Below, one piece after another: positions 1,999-23,421 of a stretch of DNA of 31,333 nucleotides. The notes below the pieces were generated by a model that was not told the DNA's origin, made no database searches, and saw nothing but the letters and a program-made list of their open reading frames with translations. This DNA is from Candidatus Micrarchaeota archaeon (GTDB lineage: Archaea; Micrarchaeota; Micrarchaeia; Anstonellales; J096), in the NCBI GenBank assembly GCA_026396375.1, contig JAPLWW010000045.1, positions 1-31,333 on the forward strand. Direction: 5' to 3'. The first letter of the stretch is position 1. Every line of letters begins with the position of its first letter. The position numbers and the translations under genes are program-made.

Positions 1999-2111
1999 AA
2001 ATCCTCCTTCCCAGGCCAATAGGATTCCAGACTTTTTCCATATTTATCCCATTTCAGTTTCAGCGTCATAATCAAATGTTTTAAAAAATGTTGGTACGAG
2101 TATATTATCAT

Positions 2112-4265
2112 ATGATGCCAGAAAGGAATTCACACAATCTCCTCAGCTATGCCCAGAAAAAGGAGAAGCTTCATGGCATAAGGAAGGTGCTTTTTGCGGC
2201 AAGGCATCCCATCCTCGAGGCCGCGATCAAATTGGGGAATAGGGAGCATGAGGAAGCCCTTAGCGAAAGCGAAGCGAAATACAGGAGCATTTTCCAGAAC
2301 AATCACACAATCATGCTTCTTGTGGATCTTGAGAAATGGTCCATAGCAGACGCCAATCCGGCGGCATGCGCATTCTACGGATACAGCAAGGAGGATCTGG
2401 TTGGCAAAAGCATATCAGAGATAAATCCTCTTAACAGGAAGGAGCTTTCCGAAAACCTGGAGGAGGCGATGCGGAAGCCAAGAAGCAAATTCTATTTCTC
2501 GCACCGCATTTCAGACGGAAGGATGAGGGATGTGGAAGTCCATACCGGGCCAATTGTCATAGGAGGCAAGCAGCTGCTCTATTCGATAATCCACGATGTC
2601 ACCGAGCAGAAAAGGATAGAGGGCATGATAAAGAGGCAAAGCGACTCCAGCGCATTGAGGGCGGAGATATGGAGCGCAGTCTGGTCGGACAGGAACCTGT
2701 CGGAGAATGAGCTGATAAAGAATGTCCTTAACCGCCTTGGGAATTTTACCAATGCGGATACCATAGTCTTCTTCAGGATCGAAAGGAAAACCGGAAATGC
2801 GGTCGCCGAGTTGGAATGGGGCAGGAACGGCATTGAGGAATCGAAAGCAGGCAAAATACTTCCCGGATTCGTCATTGAGGGCCAACATGGCAAAAAAGCC
2901 ATCGATATATCATCTAACGATATATTTGAGAAAGATGGCTCGAAGGACCTGGACAAAATAATGAAATCTTACCTTCTCATACCATATGGGGATCCGGAGA
3001 ATCCTGAAGGGTATTTCGCATTCGGGGAAAGGCTGGGAAAAAGGCTGTGGGAGAGGAATGACAGGAACCTCCTCAATGAGATGGCCAGGATACTTTTCGC
3101 AAGGATAGAGCAGATAGGCCTTGAGGAAAGCCTGCACCAGCACGAGAAGCTTGAGTCGCTTGGAAGGCTGGCAGGGGGGATAGCCCATGACTTCAACAAT
3201 ATGCTGACCGGCATCATCGGGTATGCGGATCTCCTGAAAGTCAAGGAGAACCAGAATCCCGAAGTCTGCGAATATGCAGGATTCATATCAACCGCCGCAA
3301 AGCGCATGGCAAGCCTTACGCAGAAGCTGCTGGCGTTCGCAAGGAAAGGCAAGTACAATATCCAGACAATAGACGCAAGCGGCATCATCGATGAGGTCGT
3401 TTCCGTGCTTGAAAAGGGAATAGCGAACAAGAACATCAGGATCATCAAGAGATTCGCCGCTGCCGATTCCCATATAGAAGGGGATGACAGCCTGGTATAC
3501 AATGCATTGCTCAATCTGGGGCTGAATGCAAGGGATGCGATGCCACAGGGAGGGGAAATCACCTATGAGACAATGAACATGAATCTGAAGGATGCAGACA
3601 ATGCCTTCGGGCTGGCAGCAGGCGATTATTTGGTGATAACGGTAAGGGACAACGGGACAGGCATGGACGAGGAGACGAGGAAAAAGGCATTCGAGCCTTT
3701 CTTTACAACCAAGGCTCTTGGCAAGGGAATCGGCCTCGGGCTGGCAAGCGTCTATGGAACCGTGAAATCCCATCATGGCCACGTCGAGATCATCAGCAGA
3801 GTCGGGAAAGGGACAGCAGTTGAAATCTGCTTCCCCCTTTCAGGCAATGTCTCCCTGCAAAAGCAGGAAGCATCATCTGCCCCTATCCAGGGCCATGGGA
3901 CAGTGATGGTCGTGGATGACGAGCCTCTTGTCAGGGACACTGTCGCCGATCTGCTTGAAGCAAGCGGGTACAATCCCCATAAGTTCGGGAATGGCACAGA
4001 AGCTATAATGTTCTATGAGGAGAATTGGAAAAGCATAGATTTTGTAATACTGGACATGCAGATGCCTGGCCTCAACGGAAGGGCCTGCTTCAGGGAACTG
4101 AAGGAGATAAACCCCGCTGTCAAGGCGATGCTGATTACAGGATACAGCCAGGATGATGAAGCCGCAGCGGCAATGAAGGATGGCATGATAGGATACCTGG
4201 CCAAGCCGTTCAATGTGGAAATCCTCATAGATACAATAAGGAAGAGCATCGGGGATGGAAAATGA
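2112..4265 (+). CDS. Cytoplasmic hybrid sensor histidine kinase (PAS - GAF-like - HisKA - HATPase - receiver)
   Basis: PAS ([19 protein letters not shown]...HDVTEQK), H-box [14 protein letters not shown]-box [11 protein letters not shown] boxes ([23 protein letters not shown]), receiver ([19 protein letters not shown]). Start placed at ATG 2112, about 25 nt after a TTTTAAAA box. No TM segment seen. Confidence 0.93.
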
Positions 4266-4340: not shown

Positions 4341-6287
4341 CAGCAAAGACAGTCAATTTTCAATCTAGCTAATTCCAAATCAAGAAAAAGGAGAAGGATG
4401 GCACCAAGAAAGCCTGCCGAGCTGGCAGACCCACTAGCGGAAAAGCGTCCCCTTCTCATGCCGCCTGGCATCGAGCATTTTCTCAGCGTTATTGAAGGCA
4501 AGGTTCCTTTGGACAGCATTTACCATGATTCGCCCATATGCAGGGTTCTCCTGGACAAGGGATCAGCGGAATCCCTGGGCAGGACAATAAGGAATTTCAA
4601 TAGCAGGAAGAACAACACCCCCCTGGACACGCTTGAAAATATAATCGAAAGCGATTCATTTTCCCCGGATCTGCTCCCCATGCTCGAGAGGGTTTCGGAG
4701 ATAAAGCAGGAGCACAGATACACTGATGAAGAGGGCAAGAGCCACACAATCGACAACGGCTATATCATACAGAAGGACTGCCTTGGGCACATGCTCAGCA
4801 TAATGGGCAACGGGAAGATGGGGGATTTGAGGATTGACATGCTTAAGGAGATAAACGGGAATACGAGCAGGGCCTTTGTAATGTCCGGCAATGGCGCGGA
4901 AAAAACCGACCAAAGCAAAAGCGAATACATGCTCCACTATGTTTTGAAGAAAACTGATTCATTGGCAAGCAAGGACAATTTTTCGAAGGAGATGGCCCCT
5001 TTTGTTTTTGAGATCATATCGTCAAGAAAGGACATGTGCCTTTTGCTTGAGCTATCATTGGCCAACTGCATCATCGGAAACAAGAACCTTTCCGCAGTGT
5101 CCAAGGACATCAACCTGCTCAGGGGATTTTTCTATGACATATCGGAAAAGATGATGAAGGTAACGAGCGCCATTGAAACAGACTCTGAAAAGATGAGGAT
5201 ATACCTTTCAGCTGTTGGCCTGATAATGGATGAATCATTCAACGAGGAAAGGCTAAGGATATTCAAGTTCCTCATTTCCAGGATAGAGACCATTGCAACA
5301 ACCAGTGAGGAGTCAGTGAAAATGCTCCATGACATTGAGAGATACATATCCAGCCCATGGATGAGGGAGCCTTTCCATAAGTCTCCGTTGTTTATGCTGC
5401 TCAAGAAGCCGTTGACTCCCCAAAACCATGAGACCATCGAGGCCCTTAACAGGATCGCGGCCAGCGAGCGCTTCGACAAAGACAGGATGTACTGCATCAT
5501 AGACGCGATATCAAAGAAGGATGATGAGGCCAACCTCTGCAATTCATACAGGAGGTTCCTCAAGCTCATGGAAGGCAGGAAATTCAACCCGAAGATATGC
5601 CCCATGGCAAGCGCGCTTTTCATGAAGGGATACAGGGAAGATTTCGACGCAATCTTCACTTTCCTGGAATCTTTCACTGGAAACGAGGCTGCGGGCAAGA
5701 TCTTTTACAATAGAAAAATCATCAATGCGTTTGAAAGGGTGAGCAACGGATTCCTGAACGTCAGGTCTGCGCTGAAATCCCTGGACCTGTGCATGACAAT
5801 CCTGGGGAGCAAGAGCTTCGCTACAGAACCGGCGCAGGACTCTTTTTCAGAAATCCCCGAAAGGACAGAGGGGCAGGACCTTTACAATGCCCTGATATCC
5901 TTCAATTCGATGCTGATGAGCTATGGGAGCAACAGCAGGATATGGGAAAAAGCCCTGTTCATCATCAGAAAGTCGAAGGGCGATTCCCTCTCAATATCAC
6001 TGGACCTTTTTTCAACAATGGTAGACAAGGGCAGGAGATATGCCGGCAGGATTAATGAAAAGGAGCTGTTGAAGATAATATCCATCTCAAATGCGGCTTC
6101 AAGCCTCGGGGCGGACAATGGGCAGATCGCTTCAATCATCCTATATGACATTTTCGAAAGCAAGAGCTTTGGAATGAAGGAGATGGATCTGCTTTACAGC
6201 AGGCTTTCCAAATCCCCAAGGAGGGACATCATGAGCCTCCTCGACGGCAAGCCCCAAATCCGGTCGCCAACAGCAGACAAAAGCTAA
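4338..6287 (+). CDS. Large hypothetical helical-repeat (alpha-solenoid-like) protein
   Basis: About 650-aa ORF with recurring L..I..S..F motifs (IIESDSFSPDL, IMDESFNEER, IAASERFDKDR, LMEGRKFNPKI, IFESKSFGMKE). Start placed at ATG 4338, 24 nt after the TATA box. Confidence 0.75.
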   Translation: MQQRQSIFNLANSKSRKRRRMAPRKPAELADPLAEKRPLLMPPGIEHFLSVIEGKVPLDSIYHDSPICRVLLDKGSAESLGRTIRNFNSRKNNTPLDTLENIIESDSFSPDLLPMLERVSEIKQEHRYTDEEGKSHTIDNGYIIQKDCLGHMLSIMGNGKMGDLRIDMLKEINGNTSRAFVMSGNGAEKTDQSKSEYMLHYVLKKTDSLASKDNFSKEMAPFVFEIISSRKDMCLLLELSLANCIIGNKNLSAVSKDINLLRGFFYDISEKMMKVTSAIETDSEKMRIYLSAVGLIMDESFNEERLRIFKFLISRIETIATTSEESVKMLHDIERYISSPWMREPFHKSPLFMLLKKPLTPQNHETIEALNRIAASERFDKDRMYCIIDAISKKDDEANLCNSYRRFLKLMEGRKFNPKICPMASALFMKGYREDFDAIFTFLESFTGNEAAGKIFYNRKIINAFERVSNGFLNVRSALKSLDLCMTILGSKSFATEPAQDSFSEIPERTEGQDLYNALISFNSMLMSYGSNSRIWEKALFIIRKSKGDSLSISLDLFSTMVDKGRRYAGRINEKELLKIISISNAASSLGADNGQIASIILYDIFESKSFGMKEMDLLYSRLSKSPRRDIMSLLDGKPQIRSPTADKS

Positions 6288-6318
6288 ACTTATTTAAACC
6301 TAGCTTCACATATTTAAT

Positions 6319-7167
6319 GTGGACAAAATTCTTTTGAAAAAGGCATCAGGGGAGCGCAAACCAGCCAACTTCAGCGCAAAGGAGCCTTTATTGGAAGACC
6401 ATTACCAGGCCGCTTCCAAGATATGCATTAATCATAAGATAAGGCAGGAGGCGATCCCCATAATTTCCGCAATCCTGAATTCAAACGGCAAATCCGACCT
6501 TGATTTTGAGCTCAGCCTATTGATTGGATGCATGGAAAGCGAGAATTTCCCTCTTTTCCTTTCTGATCCCGGAGGGACTGGGAAATGCATCGCGAACATC
6601 AGCAGCCTTATCGAAGACAGCATGAAGATAGACACAGCCAGGAACTGGTCACAGAGGGCATGCGCTTCGCTGTTCTGCCATGACAAATTTTCCCCGGAGG
6701 TCCTTGATGCAATATTATCGTTCCCCTCCAAATTGGATCCATACCATCTGAACCATGCCTTTAATTTAATTAAGAATATGCTTGAAAAGGACCTGATAAA
6801 CGAAAAGACCCTTTCCTATATCGGCATGGCCTCGTTTGCGGAAAAAGTCCCTAACAGATATCCTGCAATGTACGCAGTTTACAGCCTGATTGGCAATAGG
6901 AATGCCGACATAGGCTGGTTCAATGAGGATTCATGCCATGACCTGGTTGATCTATCCTGTGCGGTGAACAGGGAAGCGCCTTCGGACTTCATTCCCTCAA
7001 GGTTCAGTTCATTTACCTGGTTCCTGTCCAGCAAGGGCCTTTCAAAGGAGAACCTGGGGCTTGCAGTTTCAAAAGTCCCTTCAATGGAAGACCGGGAGAT
7101 GATCTCTTTCTTCAAGGGTCTTTCAGGGCTCAACAATGAGCCTGCATCTGTTTTTAAACCTTTTTGA
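6319..7167 (+). CDS. Hypothetical helical-repeat protein
   Basis: 282-aa ORF with GTG start. Motif LFCHDKFSPEVLDAI resembles the repeats of its neighbours. TATTTAAA at 6291-6298. Confidence 0.65.
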   Translation: MDKILLKKASGERKPANFSAKEPLLEDHYQAASKICINHKIRQEAIPIISAILNSNGKSDLDFELSLLIGCMESENFPLFLSDPGGTGKCIANISSLIEDSMKIDTARNWSQRACASLFCHDKFSPEVLDAILSFPSKLDPYHLNHAFNLIKNMLEKDLINEKTLSYIGMASFAEKVPNRYPAMYAVYSLIGNRNADIGWFNEDSCHDLVDLSCAVNREAPSDFIPSRFSSFTWFLSSKGLSKENLGLAVSKVPSMEDREMISFFKGLSGLNNEPASVFKPF

Positions 7168-17235: not shown

Positions 17236-18798
17236 ATGACAAACGGAATGGGAAGGGATTCAAGGAAAGAGCTTGAAATCTACAAAAAGAAAAAATACAT
17301 CACCCAGGCAAAGATGATTGACATAAGCACTGGGAACAAAATAGTGGTTTTGAATGACAAGGAGGCGCTTGTCAACGACATTTTCGAGGGAGAAAGAGTG
17401 GAGATAGACATAAAGGGCAAAATCCACATCGTGCTTGTCAACCTTTCGCACAGCCTTGTCAAGGAGGGGGAGATAGGGATCTATGCAGACATTTCAAAGG
17501 ACTTTGGGATAGCAGAAGGGGACATAATAGAGGTCAGTCACATCCAGACCCCGCAAAGCCTTGAGACAATAATCAAGAAGATAAACGGCCAGCCGACTAA
17601 CAAGGACGAGATCCAGTCAGTCATCAGCGATCTCATGGCAAACAGGCTTTCTGAATCTGAGATATCGGCATGGATGACATCATCTTTCATAAGGGGCCTT
17701 AACGATGAGGAGATAGTTTCGCTTACTGAGGCAATGGTCGGCTCAGGCCAATTGCTGAACCTTGGGAAATCCCCTATCGTGGACAAGCACTGCGTTGGAG
17801 GAGTCTCTGGAAACAGGACAACCATGGTATTGGTTCCAATAATCGCCTCAGCAGGGATTTACATACCCAAATCATCCTCAAGGGCAATAACATCCCCTTC
17901 AGGGACAGCTGATACCATGGAGATACTTGCCCCTGTCAACATTGAGATGGACGAGCTCAGGGAACTTGTGAAAAAGACCTTTGGCGCAATTGTCTGGGGA
18001 GGCGGAATCAACATCGCGCCTGCTGATGACAAGATGATAAAATTAAGGAGGCCATTAAGATTGGATCCAAAAGGGATACTCCTGGCAAGCATCCTTGCAA
18101 AGAAGAAGGCAGTTGGCTCCCAATATGTCCTTATTGATATTCCTATTGGCATGAGCGCCAAGATAGGCGACATGGCTACTGCCCAGGACCTTGCAAAGGA
18201 CTTCAAGACAATCGGCCAAAAATTGGGAATGAACATCGGCTGTGTTGTTACAAACGGCTCTGAGCCGATAGGGAACGGAATGGGCCCTGTGCTGGAGGCA
18301 AAGGATGTCCTAAGCGTGCTTCATGGAGAAGGCCCAACCGACCTTAAGGAAAAGAGCTTATTGCTGGCCGGAAAGATCTTCGAGCTTTGCGGAAAAGTCG
18401 GGAAAGACGAGGGATATGACGTTGCCAAGCATTTCCTTGAGTCTGGAAAGGCGCTTGACAAGATGAAGGAGATAATCGCGGCCCAGGGCGGGAACCCCAA
18501 TGTAAAGATAGACGACCTTCCGACCGCAAAATACAGGTATTCCGTCAAGGCTATTGCAGACGGAAAAATAGAGCACATAGACAACAAGAGCATATCAAGG
18601 ATAGCAAGGGCGACAGGGGCTCCTATAGACAAGGCTGCGGGGGTTTACCTCTTCAAGTCCAAAGGAGACCTGGTGAAGGCAGGAGATATCATCTTTGACT
18701 TACATGCCGAATCGGAGGCAAACATCGATTTCGCGCTTAAGATGGCTGAGGAATTCAACCCCATAAACATGGGCAAGATGCTGATAGACGAGTTCTGA
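17236..18798 (+). CDS. deoA: AMP phosphorylase (archaeal thymidine phosphorylase family)
   Basis: N-terminal beta-barrel extension, then DKHCVGGVSGNRTT, IPKSSSRAITSPSGTADTME, VWGGG.N.APADD, ASILAKKKAVG, IGNGMGPVLEAKD, GAPIDKAAGVY. Confidence 0.93.
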   Translation: MTNGMGRDSRKELEIYKKKKYITQAKMIDISTGNKIVVLNDKEALVNDIFEGERVEIDIKGKIHIVLVNLSHSLVKEGEIGIYADISKDFGIAEGDIIEVSHIQTPQSLETIIKKINGQPTNKDEIQSVISDLMANRLSESEISAWMTSSFIRGLNDEEIVSLTEAMVGSGQLLNLGKSPIVDKHCVGGVSGNRTTMVLVPIIASAGIYIPKSSSRAITSPSGTADTMEILAPVNIEMDELRELVKKTFGAIVWGGGINIAPADDKMIKLRRPLRLDPKGILLASILAKKKAVGSQYVLIDIPIGMSAKIGDMATAQDLAKDFKTIGQKLGMNIGCVVTNGSEPIGNGMGPVLEAKDVLSVLHGEGPTDLKEKSLLLAGKIFELCGKVGKDEGYDVAKHFLESGKALDKMKEIIAAQGGNPNVKIDDLPTAKYRYSVKAIADGKIEHIDNKSISRIARATGAPIDKAAGVYLFKSKGDLVKAGDIIFDLHAESEANIDFALKMAEEFNPINMGKMLIDEF

Positions 18799-18886
18799 AT
18801 TTTCTTTTTTACATTTCAAAAACCACAACAATACAGTCATGTATAAAAACAGCTTATTTCCAATTGTTTACATGGCCGTAATTTCC

Positions 18887-19879
18887 ATGTTTGGAAAGTC
18901 TTCCTGGAAACAGTGCAGGATACTTCTTCCAGAGCCTGAAGACGAAAGGATCCTTCTGGCTTCAAGGATGGCAAAGGACAGGGGCTTCGCAGTTCCTATT
19001 CTTGTAGGAAATAAAAAATCAATAGAGAAAAGCGCAAAAAGTCTAAAGATAGATCTTTCAGACATTGAAATAATAGACACATCAAAAGGCATTGGCAAAA
19101 GATATGCCGATGAGTATTCTAAGATAAGGAAGGTTCCAAAGCAACTTGCAGAAAGGATGCTTGAAAACCCATTGTTTTTGTCTGCGCTTATCTTAAGGAT
19201 AGAGGAGGCAGATGCCATGATCGCAGGCGCGGTCTTCACCTCTGCCGATGTCATAACCGCTTCGGAAGGGATAATAGGGCTGAGGAAAGGTGTTTCAGTT
19301 CCATCCAGCTTTTTCATAATGGAAATACCGGGCTATCAAGGAGGCGAGAAATCCGGCAACAATGGCTTGCTGCTTTTTGCAGACTCCTCTGTAAACATTG
19401 ATCCAACTGCAGAACAACTTGCAGATGTTGCAATAACAACGGCAAACACCGCAAAGGAGCTGATGGGATGGATTCCAAGAGTAGCCTTGCTTTCATTTTC
19501 CACAAAAGGCAGCGCAATCCATCCAAAGGCAGACAAAATAATCAATGCTACAAAAATAGCAAACAAAAAGGCCCCCAACCTTTTCATAGATGGAGAATTA
19601 CAGGGGGATTCTGCGCTTGTTGAAAAGACCGCTATCAAGAAAATGAAAGGGAAGATTGGCAATGTCGCAGGCAGGGCCAATGTGCTGATATTCCCGGATC
19701 TGGATTCAGGCAACATCTCCTATAAATTAGTTCAAACACTGGCAGGCGCGAACGCATATGGTCCAATATTACAAGGATTCAACAAGCCAGTGAGCGACCT
19801 TTCAAGGGGCGCGAAGCCTGAAGACATAGTCGGGACAATTGCCATACTCAGCACATGGGCAAAGAGGATGAAAAGATGA
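18887..19879 (+). CDS. pta: Phosphate acetyltransferase (short Pta type); start uncertain (18839, 18872 or 18887)
   Basis: ILLPEPEDERIL, SSFFIM, FADSSVNIDPTAEQLA, PRVALLSFSTKGSA, DGELQGDSAL, ANVLIFPDLDSGNISYKL, YGPILQGFNKPVSDLSRG. Confidence 0.92.
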   Translation: MFGKSSWKQCRILLPEPEDERILLASRMAKDRGFAVPILVGNKKSIEKSAKSLKIDLSDIEIIDTSKGIGKRYADEYSKIRKVPKQLAERMLENPLFLSALILRIEEADAMIAGAVFTSADVITASEGIIGLRKGVSVPSSFFIMEIPGYQGGEKSGNNGLLLFADSSVNIDPTAEQLADVAITTANTAKELMGWIPRVALLSFSTKGSAIHPKADKIINATKIANKKAPNLFIDGELQGDSALVEKTAIKKMKGKIGNVAGRANVLIFPDLDSGNISYKLVQTLAGANAYGPILQGFNKPVSDLSRGAKPEDIVGTIAILSTWAKRMKR

Positions 19880-21063
19880 AAAAAATACTTATGCTCAACT
19901 GCGGAAGCTCATCAATAAAATACAGGCTTTTCGACTCTGCATTCAGGGAGATCCTCAGCGGAAAGGTTGAAAGGATAGGCGAAAAGGAGTCTGAGATTGT
20001 TCACAGCAAAGGCAGTAGGGTTTACAGGGCAAAGGTGAAATCCAATAACCACAAGGAGGCAATAGCATTGATGATAAGGATGCTCCATGACAAAGAATGG
20101 GGCGGCATACGCAATGTTGCAGAGATATCTGTAATAGGGCACCGCGCGGTCCATGGAGGGCAGATGGCAAAGACATCGCTTGTCTCAGGTGCGGCGCTGG
20201 ATTATTTGAAATCATTTGAGATGCTCGCGCCTCTCCATAATCCCCATAATATAGAGGGCATGAAGGAGATGAAGAAGGCAATGCCGAATGTGCCCCAGGT
20301 CATGATTTTTGACACAGCGTTCCACCAGACAATGCCAAGAAAGGCATACATGTACGGCTTGCCGTACAGTTTCTTTGACAAGTACGCAGTAAGGAGGTAC
20401 GGCTTCCATGGCACCTCGCATAAGTACGTTTCGCTGAGGGCCGCTGAAATGCTGAGAATGAAAAAGCCAAATCTCATAACATGCCATCTTGGCGCAGGCT
20501 CAAGCATAACCGCAATTAAGGACGGAAAATCAATTGACACAAGCATGGGCATGACTCCATTGGAGGGAGTGATGATGGGAACAAGGACAGGGGACATTGA
20601 CCCGTCCATAGTGCAATACTTGGTGAATAAATACGGCTTTGGCTATGATGATCTGTTTGACATCATGAACAACAAAAGCGGCTTGCTTGGCATATCAGGG
20701 ACAAGCAAGGACATCAGGATAATAGAGGGAAAGGCGAAAAAGGGCAACGAGAGGTGCGAGCTTGCGCTTGAGATGTTTTCTTATAGAGTATCAAAATACA
20801 TCGGCGCATATGCCGTTGCCTTAGGCAGGGTTGACGCGATAGTGTTCACTGCAGGAATAGGGGAGAATTCCCCAAGCATGAGGAAAAGGATATGCTCAAA
20901 CCTTGGCATAATCGGCGCAAGGCTTGATCCAAGGAAGAATACAAAAGCCATTGGCAAGGAAGCTGATGTAAGCGCAAAAGGATCAAAGATAAGGATCCTT
21001 GTTATACCTACGGATGAGGAGCTGATGATGGCAAAGGAGGCTGCTGCGGCAATAGGAAAATAG
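19876..21063 (+). CDS. ackA: Acetate kinase
   Basis: LNCGSSSIKY, GHRAVHGG, APLHNP, FDTAFHQT, RRYGFHGTSH, DTSMGMTPLEG, FTAGIGENS, IPTDEE. ATG overlaps the pta stop. Confidence 0.96.
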   Translation: MKKILMLNCGSSSIKYRLFDSAFREILSGKVERIGEKESEIVHSKGSRVYRAKVKSNNHKEAIALMIRMLHDKEWGGIRNVAEISVIGHRAVHGGQMAKTSLVSGAALDYLKSFEMLAPLHNPHNIEGMKEMKKAMPNVPQVMIFDTAFHQTMPRKAYMYGLPYSFFDKYAVRRYGFHGTSHKYVSLRAAEMLRMKKPNLITCHLGAGSSITAIKDGKSIDTSMGMTPLEGVMMGTRTGDIDPSIVQYLVNKYGFGYDDLFDIMNNKSGLLGISGTSKDIRIIEGKAKKGNERCELALEMFSYRVSKYIGAYAVALGRVDAIVFTAGIGENSPSMRKRICSNLGIIGARLDPRKNTKAIGKEADVSAKGSKIRILVIPTDEELMMAKEAAAAIGK

Positions 21064-21071
21064 TGATCAAA

Positions 21072-21446
21072 ATGGATGTGAAAGGCATAGGCATAGACAT
21101 TGTTGACATCAAAAAGCTGGAGAAGATACTGAAGGGAAAAGCAGGCAAGGCCTTTATCAAGAATACTTTCACAAATCATGAGATCGCATGCGCGAAAGGC
21201 GGGATAAATATCTACAAGCTTGCAACGTCCTTTGCTGCAAAGGAGGCAGTTTACAAGGCCTTTGGCACAGGATGGATCGAGGGAAAAGATGTTGAAGTAT
21301 TAAGGACAAAGGAAGAAGGCACTCCCAGCATAAGGCTTCATGGAGAAATAGAAAAGATGGCGAAAAAAAGGAAGATAAGAAAAGTGCTTGTAAGCTTATC
21401 ATTTACGGAAAGCAATGCAATCGCGATGGCGGTGCTTGTCTCATGA
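21072..21446 (+). CDS. acpS: Holo-[acyl-carrier-protein] synthase (AcpS-type 4'-phosphopantetheinyl transferase)
   Basis: KGIGIDIVDI...FT..E...FAAKEAVYKAFGTG...EV...GTP.I.L.G...VSLS.T...AIAMAVL. Alternative start is GTG 21063. Confidence 0.9.
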   Translation: MDVKGIGIDIVDIKKLEKILKGKAGKAFIKNTFTNHEIACAKGGINIYKLATSFAAKEAVYKAFGTGWIEGKDVEVLRTKEEGTPSIRLHGEIEKMAKKRKIRKVLVSLSFTESNAIAMAVLVS

Positions 21447-21475
21447 AATAAATACAAGACAAATAAAAAAGTAAA
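21447..21475 (-). terminator. T-rich tract between the convergent acpS and ACP genes
   Basis: The minus strand reads TTTACTTTTTTATTTGTCTTGTATTTATT right after the ACP stop, resembling archaeal oligo-T terminators. Confidence 0.35.
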
Positions 21476-21736
21476 TTAATTTTTTAATTTCCTGGCTTTC
21501 TTGTACATGTAGTTAATGGCTTCATTTATCGTTTTGTTCTGCCTTACGTCCCTCTGCGGAACCCTCAAGCCGAATTCCATCTCCAGGGCAGCCAAAAGCT
21601 CGACTATGTTCATGGACTTGGCATGGAGGTCGTCGACGAAACTCGTGCTTTCCTTGAGCTTCGTCTCCTTGACATTGAAGACATCTGCAACGACCTTCAT
21701 TACCTTTTTTGCCACTTCCTTGCGGTCTATCCTCAT
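21476..21736 (-). CDS. Acyl carrier protein (atypical: DDLHAKSMNIVEL)
   Basis: 86 aa with ACP layout: KV..VVADVF.V....L...TSFVDDL-x3-S41-M.IVELL.ALE.EFGL.VP......KTI.EAI.Y. Its ATG abuts the DUF35 stop. Confidence 0.88.
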   Translation of the reverse strand: MRIDRKEVAKKVMKVVADVFNVKETKLKESTSFVDDLHAKSMNIVELLAALEMEFGLRVPQRDVRQNKTINEAINYMYKKARKLKN

Positions 21737-22135
21737 TTACTTCTCCACCTTGAATATCACTATGTCCAAGTCTGCCATCCTCTTTATCTTGGCCTTTACT
21801 TTCATAGGCATCTTGGCATTCTGAGCCTCAAGCGCCTCGACATTGGAAACGTCAAGCCCCTCTATACAGGTGAAGAAGCACGGCCCCTCTTTGAGCTCCA
21901 CCGCCCCATAGGCATAGGGATGATATTTTGCGAACTTCATGGGCGGAAGGTTTCCGCTTGAGAAGAATTGCAGTTTTCCTTCCCCGCTTATCAGCTTCCA
22001 TTCCATATCGTGCGCTCCGCACTTCATGCACCCTGCCTTAGGGGGAAATGTGAAATGCCCGCACTTCCTGCATTTTACGCCATATATCTTTCCATTCGAA
22101 ACAGCTTTGTAGAATCTTGTCACCATGCTTTCCAT
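21737..22135 (-). CDS. Zn-ribbon + OB-fold protein (DUF35/ChsH2/PhlB family)
   Basis: GKIYGVKCRKCGHFTFPPKAGCMKCG...WKLISGEGKL...PYAYGAVELKEG. ATG 22135 follows a GGTGA RBS overlapping the thiolase stop. Confidence 0.92.
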   Translation of the reverse strand: MESMVTRFYKAVSNGKIYGVKCRKCGHFTFPPKAGCMKCGAHDMEWKLISGEGKLQFFSSGNLPPMKFAKYHPYAYGAVELKEGPCFFTCIEGLDVSNVEALEAQNAKMPMKVKAKIKRMADLDIVIFKVEK

Positions 22136-22140
22136 GTTTT

Positions 22141-23421
22141 TCACCTCTTCAATACTGTCACTGCGGAATGCATTCCGTATCCGTGGTTGTGTACAACCGA
22201 CACTTCAGGGGCATCCTTAATCTGCCTTCCCTTGGCTTCCCCCCTCATCTGCTTGACCGCTTCATAGAAGTCAGCGCCCGCAGATGCGGAAAATGCGTGC
22301 CCCTTTCCATGCTTCCCCCCTGATGTGTTCATCGGCTTGTCGCCGTCATACCTTGTCCTTCCCTCCATGACCGCCTTCCATGCCTCGCCTTTCTTGAAGT
22401 ATCCGCATATCTCGGATTCTATCAAGTGGTATATCTGCATGCAGTCATGCACGCTAAGGTAATCTATGTCCTTTGCGGTTATGCCTGCCATCTTCATTGC
22501 GGTTTCAAAGGTAGTATTGTCTATCGCCCAGTCAGTAGGATCTTTTCCATACCACGGGTAGTTGCTTGCGCTCCAGTGGAATCCCTCTATGCTTATGGGC
22601 TCCTTGTCGCAGAACTGCTTTGCTTGGCTTTCGGAGCTGATTATGTAGGCAGATGCCCCATCAACAGTATTAAGCACGCTCCTTGCCCTTGCCGGCCATG
22701 CCAGGAAGGGGTTCTTCCTGCTTGTCCAGAATTCCGCATCATCCTTGAATCCAGCCTTTTTCGCGTCCTGCTCAAAGGTGGTCTGCACGTATGCCTTCTT
22801 GTTCCTTGAGGCATGCAATTTCACTGTCCTATGTATCTCTCGCATTGCCTCATCCATCTTGCTCATCTTGATATGGTGCTTTTTCGCATATCCAAGCGTG
22901 GGCAATCCCCCATATGCAGTTGCCACATCATATGCATGATGATATCCATAGGCCTGGTCAACGCCGAAGTCAGTCCAGTACCACAGCGTGGTCGGGTCAG
23001 TCGGCTTCCTTATCGTGGGATTGTCAGTCGCTGCTGAGGACAGTATATCGCATCCTATGACCAGCACATTCCTGAATTTCCCTGATGCGATGCTCATTGC
23101 TGCAAGCCCTGCCCCAGTATTTGTAGTTGAGCAAGCTGTCGCAAAGTGAATGGCCGGCTTCAGGTGCAACCCAAGCCAGTCTGCCATCTGAGTATTGTGT
23201 GAATAAAGATGGGAGCTGTGGCTGAGCATGCTTCCAATGTAGAATGCGTCAATATCTTTAGGATCTATTCCCGAGTCATCCATCGCCTCAAAGGCGGCAG
23301 TGCAAACAAGCTCCTGGAAGCCAAGCCCCTTTATTTCAGGAGTAGTTAAAACGCTTCCGAATTTCGTACATCCAACTCCGGTTATCACCGGCTTTTCCTT
23401 CAGGTTTCCTACATATGCCAT
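22141..23421 (-). CDS. Thiolase-family protein (SCP2/archaeal/PhlC-like type)
   Basis: ITGVGCTKFG, catalytic ATAC97STT, DGASAYI, SVHDC, NTSGG..GKGH, VKQMRGEAKGRQI, HNHGYG. GGTGA RBS upstream. Confidence 0.92.
   Translation of the reverse strand: MAYVGNLKEKPVITGVGCTKFGSVLTTPEIKGLGFQELVCTAAFEAMDDSGIDPKDIDAFYIGSMLSHSSHLYSHNTQMADWLGLHLKPAIHFATACSTTNTGAGLAAMSIASGKFRNVLVIGCDILSSAATDNPTIRKPTDPTTLWYWTDFGVDQAYGYHHAYDVATAYGGLPTLGYAKKHHIKMSKMDEAMREIHRTVKLHASRNKKAYVQTTFEQDAKKAGFKDDAEFWTSRKNPFLAWPARARSVLNTVDGASAYIISSESQAKQFCDKEPISIEGFHWSASNYPWYGKDPTDWAIDNTTFETAMKMAGITAKDIDYLSVHDCMQIYHLIESEICGYFKKGEAWKAVMEGRTRYDGDKPMNTSGGKHGKGHAFSASAGADFYEAVKQMRGEAKGRQIKDAPEVSVVHNHGYGMHSAVTVLKR

Follow-up and report, generated by a model that had tools for sequence, protein, structure and literature searches.

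The ACP gene analysed here lies in the window (the whole 31,333-nt stretch of Candidatus Micrarchaeota DNA) and encodes a genuine acyl carrier protein of a very small symbiotic archaeon, which is very probably a dedicated carrier working outside fatty acid synthesis (FAS). This ACP probably carries acetyl where CoA normally would, because its family always sits in a thiolase/acetyl-phosphate gene set and not in a FAS pathway. On the basis of gene content and residue patterns, we estimate at about 60% the probability that it shuttles acetyl groups between acetyl-phosphate and a thiolase in place of CoA.

Direct counting in the translated ORF gave the context FVDDLHAK-S-MNIVELL around Ser41 and a composition of 19 K/R versus 12 D/E (net charge +7, pI 9.8), confirming both the DDLHAK-S41-MNIVEL motif and the net basic character described in the earlier note. 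The protein matched PF00550 (PP-binding) with 35.2 bits, above the cut-off of 20.8, and its gene was the only PP-binding gene found in the window's genome (G000; 0.97 Mb, 78% complete). It aligned without gaps to solved FAS ACPs, Ser41 falling on their phosphopantetheine Ser (the GADS-LDVVEL segment of Aquifex 2EHS aligned with HAKS-MNIVEL), and the attachment Ser was invariant in every ACP alignment made. An AlphaFold2 model, built with 71 relatives in the alignment, reached a pLDDT of 91.9 and predicted four helices (residues 5-20, 41-55, 61-64 and 70-85) helix II beginning at Ser41. The best PDB match of this model in Foldseek was the Thermus thermophilus ACP 1X3O (TM 0.86/0.92, rmsd 1.0 Å). 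When compared to FAS-type AcpP equivalogs, the protein scored below all NCBIfam cut-offs (TIGR00517, 60.8 vs 70.45; NF002148, 68.6 vs 71; NF002149, 64.1 vs 106) and, instead of the D-S-L motif and strong acidity of a FAS AcpP, presented K-S-M and a positive charge.

The ACP gene belongs to a six-gene cassette that spans positions 18839-23421 of the window and consists of two convergent operons, within each of which the genes overlap or abut (Table 1). The ATG of the ACP gene directly abuts the stop codon of the DUF35 gene, which in turn overlaps the thiolase gene by 4 nt, while the AcpS gene overlaps the stop of AckA, and 29 nt separate the AcpS end from the stop of the ACP gene. The DUF35 protein is the partner or scaffold subunit of the cassette thiolase, itself a second, divergent thiolase in a genome that carries its housekeeping thiolase elsewhere. 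Other genes of the window encode ribosomal protein L44e, aIF2-alpha, PAC2, SBDS, exosome subunits and prefoldin. Several further features were recorded in passing. The adjacency of AMP phosphorylase and Pta was limited to the window's own genus (loci L021 and L022). The tandem paralogues share 40-55% identity with each other and contain internal repeats of about 70-115 aa, in which DFWIxxGWY and NRLSGLLxxYYxxSPYEALxEAG segments recur; they had no Pfam match above cut-off and no further copy in the genome.

Table 1. Coordinates of the cassette genes and of neighbouring features in the window
Feature	Position (nt)	Strand	Characteristics
Hybrid PAS-HisKA-HATPase-receiver kinase	2088-4265	+	
Four ORFs of 655, 282, 287 and 287 aa	4320-8926	+	After the hybrid kinase; no Pfam match
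Ankyrin-repeat protein, 210 aa	16470-17102	+	Present in a DPANN archaeon
AMP phosphorylase	17236-18798	+	TIGR03327, 590 bits; directly upstream of Pta
Phosphotransacetylase-family enzyme (Pta), 346 aa	18839-19879	+	Just below NCBIfam Pta cut-offs
Acetate kinase (AckA), 402 aa	19855-21063	+	PF00871, 457 bits; TIGR00016, 464 bits
AcpS-type 4'-phosphopantetheinyl transferase, 127 aa	21063-21446	+	Last gene of the Pta-AckA-AcpS operon
ACP, 86 aa	21476-21736	-	Attachment Ser41 in HAK-S motif; last gene of the thiolase-DUF35-ACP operon
DUF35 protein	21737-22144	-	Zinc ribbon C-x2-C-x10-C-x2-C and OB fold; PF12172, 44 bits; PF01796, 33 bits
SCP2/archaeal-type thiolase, 426 aa	22141-23421	-	Invariant Cys97, HDC327 loop, GH375
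Tandem paralogues, 356 and 277 aa	23749-25649	-	

The nearest relatives of both the ACP and the thiolase carry the names Candidatus Micrarchaeota or Micrarchaeia, and the ACP was present in 19 out of 301 sampled genomes of the phylum. All six genes were common to the 18 other ACP-positive Micrarchaeota genomes, 17 of which showed the same convergent layout, and the set persisted down to 38% ACP identity. AckA and AcpS-type phosphopantetheinyl transferases (PPTases) were found in 28 and 26 of the 301 genomes, respectively, both sets including all 19 with the ACP. Among the flanking genes of the Micrarchaeota cassette loci, which were checked for substrate clues, none was conserved beyond the six. 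Separately, six Micrarchaeota genomes (G164, G188, G295, G086, G189 and G243) encoded better-scoring AcpS-type PPTases (57-66 bits) with no ACP detectable by the window-ACP query; these genomes may hold other carrier systems.

Relatives of the cassette thiolase with 47-66% identity occurred in Woesearchaeota, Thermoproteota, Bathyarchaeia, Halodesulfurarchaeum, Paceibacterota and Polyangiaceae. A scan of 185,579 genomes, one per prokaryotic species, with the thiolase alignment returned 80 loci. DUF35 adjoined the thiolase in 78 of them and an ACP lay beside DUF35 in 35, at a distance of at most 400 nt in 30 cases. Within these 35 ACP-positive loci, Pta was found in 32, AcpS in 28 and AckA in 23, the three loci lacking Pta all ending at a contig edge, while the 45 ACP-negative thiolase-DUF35 loci contained a single Pta and neither AcpS nor AckA. 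The hosts of the cassette comprised archaea (Promethearchaeota of the Asgard group, Methanosarcinales and Hecatella), CPR bacteria (Minisyncoccia and Saccharibacteria) and other bacteria, namely Oleimmundimicrobium, Actinobacteria, Acidimicrobiales, Chloroflexi, Devosiaceae (Proteobacteria), Myxococcota and Clostridia, with Geosporobacter ferrireducens and Sinanaerobacter chloroacetimidivorans as cultured members. Two loci deserve a separate mention. A Myxococcota locus (L100) presented thiolase, DUF35 and Pta with no detectable ACP. Just upstream of the Geosporobacter ferrireducens cassette lay genes for a metallo-beta-lactamase-fold protein and a divergent AraC-family regulator (L069, positions 4611-6778), a possible hint of an inducible substrate. 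Our literature search for the thiolase-DUF35-ACP-Pta-AcpS cassette found no paper describing it.

The residues of the cassette enzymes were compared with those of characterised proteins. The window Pta keeps the catalytic Ser309/Arg310/Asp316 of Methanosarcina thermophila Pta (MtPta; 1QZT) as Ser322/Arg323/Asp329, as well as the equivalent of Arg87, and has Thr140 at the position of MtPta Arg133. The same catalytic residues were kept in the cassette Ptas as a group, in which Arg87 was mostly conserved. At the Arg133 position, none of the 31 cassette Ptas had a basic residue (all presented M, T, A, S, I or L), while the four solved Ptas in the alignment all had Arg. The loss was not exclusive to the cassette, as non-cassette Micrarchaeota Ptas showed one K and two I at this position. 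In the Porphyromonas gingivalis Pta structure, Arg87 and Arg133 contact acetyl-CoA and mainly affect the Km for acetyl-CoA (PMC6461089).

These data bear on an alternative in which the ACP would serve the thiolase-DUF35 pair only, in a ketosynthase-like manner, to build beta-keto, longer acyl or polyketide products, with Pta and AckA acting as ordinary CoA enzymes that supply acetyl-CoA. Such an arrangement would agree with the co-transcription of the ACP with thiolase-DUF35 and not with Pta, with the conservation of the Pta catalytic residues and, mostly, of Arg87, and with the finding that five bacterial hosts gave no strong Pta-family (TIGR00651) match other than the cassette Pta; in those hosts it might also serve as an ordinary Pta. 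We nevertheless regard this alternative as unlikely, given that AcpS is co-transcribed with Pta-AckA in Micrarchaeota, that the occurrence of Pta near thiolase-DUF35 tracks that of the ACP (32/35 vs 1/45), that Arg133 is gone from every cassette Pta, and that the module has no conserved reductase, dehydratase or thioesterase. Regarding the thiolase itself, five basic residues found conserved in relatives without an ACP were missing from the ACP-linked enzymes (window thiolase positions 128, 130, 219, 303 and 352); this comparison is between clades rather than independent samples and is confounded by phylogeny, and is only suggestive of a tie between thiolase and ACP.

A connection with the mevalonate pathway was also considered. 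In the window's genome and in each of four relatives, an archaeal HMG-CoA synthase (HMGCS) with a score above its equivalog cut-off was encoded, as was a canonical thiolase in addition to that of the cassette. The HMGCS of the window's genome lies outside the cassette, on another contig (G000:C108), and in the genomes G239 and G224 it adjoins the canonical thiolase. Because the canonical thiolase and HMGCS lie elsewhere, the cassette thiolase-DUF35 constitutes an extra pair and not the entry to mevalonate. If the module fed this pathway, acetoacetyl-ACP would be handed to the archaeal HMGCS for isoprenoid lipids. The possession of HMGCS by these Micrarchaeota and the fact that the thiolase of the 6ESQ complex is among the closest relatives of known structure lend this possibility some appeal, but we consider it quite improbable in view of the separate canonical thiolase in each genome, the constant absence of HMGCS from the cassette and the frequency of the cassette in Clostridia, Chloroflexi and CPR bacteria.

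The ADP-forming acetyl-CoA synthetase (ACD; ATP-grasp_5) was present in 278 out of 301 genomes of the phylum, nearly all cassette genomes among them; the tally takes in the unpublished genomes G198 and G029, on which no claim rests. The possibility that the cassette replaces ACD was rejected on these grounds and, therefore, the module represents an addition rather than the sole route from acetyl-thioester to ATP. As a side observation, three genomes (G007, G052 and G156; loci L125, L126 and L128) carried AckA and Pta without nearby ACP, thiolase or DUF35 and showed no ACD ATP-grasp_5 match; in these genomes an ordinary Pta-AckA pathway may have replaced ACD.

With respect to CoA supply, CoaB/DFP (PF04127) gave no match in four of five Micrarchaeota genomes (G000, G061, G224 and G074), with controls detected in 14 out of 14 cases, and these four organisms probably cannot make CoA de novo. 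The CoaB-less Micrarchaeota nonetheless encode a CoA-dependent thiolase/HMGCS and an AcpS that needs CoA. The missing CoaB suggests that CoA is scavenged, in which case a non-diffusible pantetheine carrier would spare CoA, a consideration that does not apply to the bacterial hosts.

We also analysed how the cassette AcpS might accommodate the atypical ACP motif. In 26 of the 29 cassette AcpS sequences, R or K occupied the position of AcpS Arg14, which we take to pair with ACP Asp35 in canonical complexes, as in the Bacillus subtilis AcpS-ACP structure. A charge swap, in which an acidic AcpS residue would offset ACP Lys40, was rejected because the cassette AcpS keeps a basic residue at this Asp35-pairing position. 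With its atypical residue before Ser, the ACP loses the contact that AcpS usually makes, and no change in AcpS compensates for this, as might be expected if the protein were an apo-ACP-like structural or regulatory subunit of thiolase-DUF35 with no covalent carrier role; ACPs are indeed found as moonlighting structural subunits in the PDB entries of complex I and Nfs1-ISD11. The invariance of Ser in every alignment and the presence of AcpS within the cassette flanks of 28 out of 35 loci, and of 19 out of 19 Micrarchaeota genomes, make a purely structural role very improbable and favour the carrier reading.

The Lys-Ser motif of the window ACP is not due to chance. Among about 80 cluster representatives with 64-88% identity to the window ACP, H-A-K-S was nearly invariant. 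In the 150 nearest 50%-identity representatives, taken from a set of 1.8 billion proteins, 140 domain matches were of the D-S type and only 10 presented K/R-S. In the cassette ACPs, K or R preceded Ser in 34 out of 35, the remaining one (L056, from Minisyncoccia) having S-S, and (N/P)-K-T was found in nearly all at the positions corresponding to N67-K68-T69. The window ACP carries both marks of this K/R-Ser family, K40-S41 and N67-K68-T69. The replacement of both acidic residues flanking Ser had been highlighted in the earlier note. The substitution before Ser held for nearly the whole family, while the D-to-N change at +2 did not and is not a family trait, because the residue at position 43 varies in close relatives (D, N, E, G or S).

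A maximum-likelihood tree was built from 110 ACPs (82 columns, with the motif column kept in and an arbitrary root). A branch with an SH-aLRT of 96 set apart all 43 rows that were cassette or K/R-S ACPs, including one with S-S, together with two further S-S variants. From sequence comparison, the K/R-S ACPs thus appear to be a distinct subfamily forming a single clade. An ACP-anchored search of 301 genomes of the class Clostridia identified two K/R-S ACPs, both within the cassette, and nine D-S ACPs, none of which lay beside DUF35, Pta or AcpS. When the neighbours of K-S ACPs were looked up, as the earlier note had suggested, 19 out of 19 in Micrarchaeota and two out of two in Clostridia were in the cassette and never in a fab context. 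Hence, K-S ACPs scattered among fab operons, which would have spoken against a dedicated subfamily, were not observed in the samples searched. A Nitrososphaerota-type alignment had no match in genome contigs and, in metagenomes, hit only one 1.4-kb contig (L042), which was left out of the analysis.

The charge of the protein required a separate evaluation. Single-domain D/E-S representatives had a median net charge of -12 (n=47), while K/R-S representatives spanned -4 to +9, the wider K/R-S family ranged from -6 to +11 and the Micrarchaeota branch had a median of +5, being positive in 77 out of 82 members. The proteome of the window's genome is basic as well: its median pI is 8.3 and 35% of the ORFs of at least 100 aa lie above pI 9, at a GC content of only 45-50%. 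The window Pta, AckA and AcpS have pI values of 9.5-9.8 and, when DUF35 is included, the range is 9.3-9.8. In five bacterial hosts, a separate AcpP with an ADS motif, a net charge of -11 to -18 and a score above the TIGR00517 cut-off was present in addition to the cassette ACP, which had a KS motif and a net charge of -4 to +1. The cassette ACPs of these bacteria scored 29-35 bits and their own AcpPs 79-102 bits, and four of the five hosts encoded a second PPTase beside that of the cassette. Because the bacterial hosts also keep a very acidic ADS AcpP, the family is characterised by its K/R-Ser motif and by a loss of acidity. A positive net charge, in turn, is a Micrarchaeota trait that largely tracks the basic proteome, and the idea that basic charge defines the subfamily was rejected, as the charge follows the proteome and the bacterial members are mildly acidic. 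The net basic composition that had been put forward as an argument for a separate subfamily is therefore sustained in one part only: acidity is lost across the family, while the positive charge is absent from the bacterial members.

Genome searches agreed with a function outside FAS II. FabD (PF00698) and FabA/FabZ (PF07977) were not found in the window's genome or in four relatives (84-93% complete), although all controls were detected. Similarly, no true ketosynthase (PF00109) was found in these five genomes, the sole signal being a weak hit inside the housekeeping thiolase. The FAS II partners FabD, FabH/F and FabZ were thus not found in G000. The explanation that the window ACP is an ordinary bacterial-type FAS ACP, gained by transfer and with a motif and charge that drifted in a basic proteome, would account for its top sequence and structure matches being FAS AcpPs, but it is hardly credible for a protein that scores below all NCBIfam AcpP cut-offs in a genome without FAS II partners, and whose K/R-S motif is kept across phyla, including acidic-proteome bacteria with a normal AcpP, in ACPs that form a single clade. 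Altogether, the single clade, the cassette-only context and the lack of FAS II genes support the earlier proposal of a dedicated subfamily that is separate from FAS II and does not serve ordinary fatty acid synthesis. The term orthogonal, which had also been used, does not suit the window's archaeon, which has no FAS to be orthogonal to. Gene content further suggests orthogonality to housekeeping AcpS and to FAS enzymes.

Taking the acetyl-shuttle reading as the most probable one, the cassette could operate as follows. The cassette AcpS would attach 4'-phosphopantetheine to Ser41, and the resulting holo-ACP would act as thiol partner of both Pta and thiolase-DUF35 in place of coenzyme A. AckA would interconvert acetate plus ATP and acetyl-phosphate, from which the specialised Pta would reversibly transfer the acetyl group to holo-ACP, yielding acetyl-ACP and Pi. 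Thiolase-DUF35 would then make or break a C-C bond on the ACP-bound acetyl, for example by converting two acetyl groups to acetoacetyl; alternatively, the reverse cleavage could feed ATP formation. Speaking against this scheme, the gene content of the module included no enzyme to load or consume acetoacetyl-ACP. Recognition might rely on a code consisting of Lys/Arg before Ser, the Asn-Lys-Thr patch at 67-69 and the lost acidic surface, which would prevent cross-talk of the carrier with FAS enzymes and housekeeping AcpS.

A broader proposal, to which we give somewhat less than even odds, is that these features reflect a widespread pathway that the literature searched does not describe. In it, a tethered phosphopantetheine would replace free CoA, AckA and an ACP-specific Pta would interconvert acetate/ATP and acetyl-ACP, thiolase-DUF35 would carry out the C-C chemistry, and the K/R-Ser code would isolate the carrier. 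Were this the case, the cassette would constitute a CoA-sparing acetyl/ATP module for DPANN archaea (apparently CoaB-less), CPR bacteria, Asgard archaea and many anaerobes, and the window ACP would join the small number of archaeal ACPs to which a role has been assigned. Nearly all Archaea are said to lack ACP and AcpS (bioRxiv 10.1101/2024.07.05.601840). A carrier that replaces CoA for both Pta and thiolase would add a new branch to acetyl metabolism and energy conservation, account for the seemingly stray annotations of ACP, AcpS and Pta in the genomes of DPANN archaea and CPR bacteria, and provide a naturally orthogonal ACP/PPTase pair for engineering. For genome annotation, the K/R-Ser and (N/P)KT motifs allow these carriers to be separated from FAS AcpP.

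The comparison with known systems locates the cassette among them. With FAS AcpPs (E. coli 1T8K/1L0H, 1X3O and 2EHS), the window ACP shares the four-helix fold, the Ser opening helix II (TM 0.86-0.92, 33-35% identity), the helix II acids E46/E52/E54 and the pairing with an AcpS-type PPTase. It differs from them in that K/R replaces D before Ser in the cassette ACPs and in Asn67, which stands where D-S ACPs have I, L or M (the position of E. coli Ile62, for which the PDB holds an I62M butyryl-ACP entry, 1L0I). In addition, the net charge of K/R-S ACPs is about 10 units less negative and, in the searches made, they were never next to fab genes. The Pta-AckA pathway (M. thermophila 1QZT/2AF3; P. 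gingivalis 6IOW) offers a Pta that is about 40% identical, with the same catalytic Ser/Arg/Asp, and the cassette AckA is canonical; unlike these solved Ptas, the cassette Pta lacks the CoA-contacting Arg133 and is co-operonic with AcpS. PhlABC (PpATase) and BbsAB (5M3K and 7PXP) resemble the cassette in their DUF35-associated thiolase-fold subunit and act on non-standard substrates, but they are distant (E values of 4e-22 and 6e-25) and have no carrier protein, PPTase or phosphotransacylase, while PhlA (KAS III-like) has no counterpart in the cassette. The thiolase/HMGCS/DUF35 complex of M. thermolithotrophicus (6ESQ/6ET9) has the same thiolase subfamily and a DUF35 zinc-ribbon/OB partner like that of the cassette, again in an archaeal host. 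The same thiolase subfamily together with a DUF35 protein is also found in the archaeal FAS complex of Sulfolobus acidocaldarius, another archaeon, whose fatty acid synthase complex is ACP-independent (bioRxiv 10.1101/2024.07.05.601840). Both of these archaeal systems use CoA thioesters independently of ACP, whereas the cassette thiolase shares an operon with an ACP and is linked to AcpS, Pta and AckA, without the HMGCS, reductase or dehydratase of those systems. Known thiolase-DUF35 systems use CoA; in the tiny-genome archaea and bacteria and the many anaerobes that carry the cassette, thiolase-DUF35 and acetyl-phosphate enzymes are instead linked to an ACP subfamily that bears a sequence code of its own.
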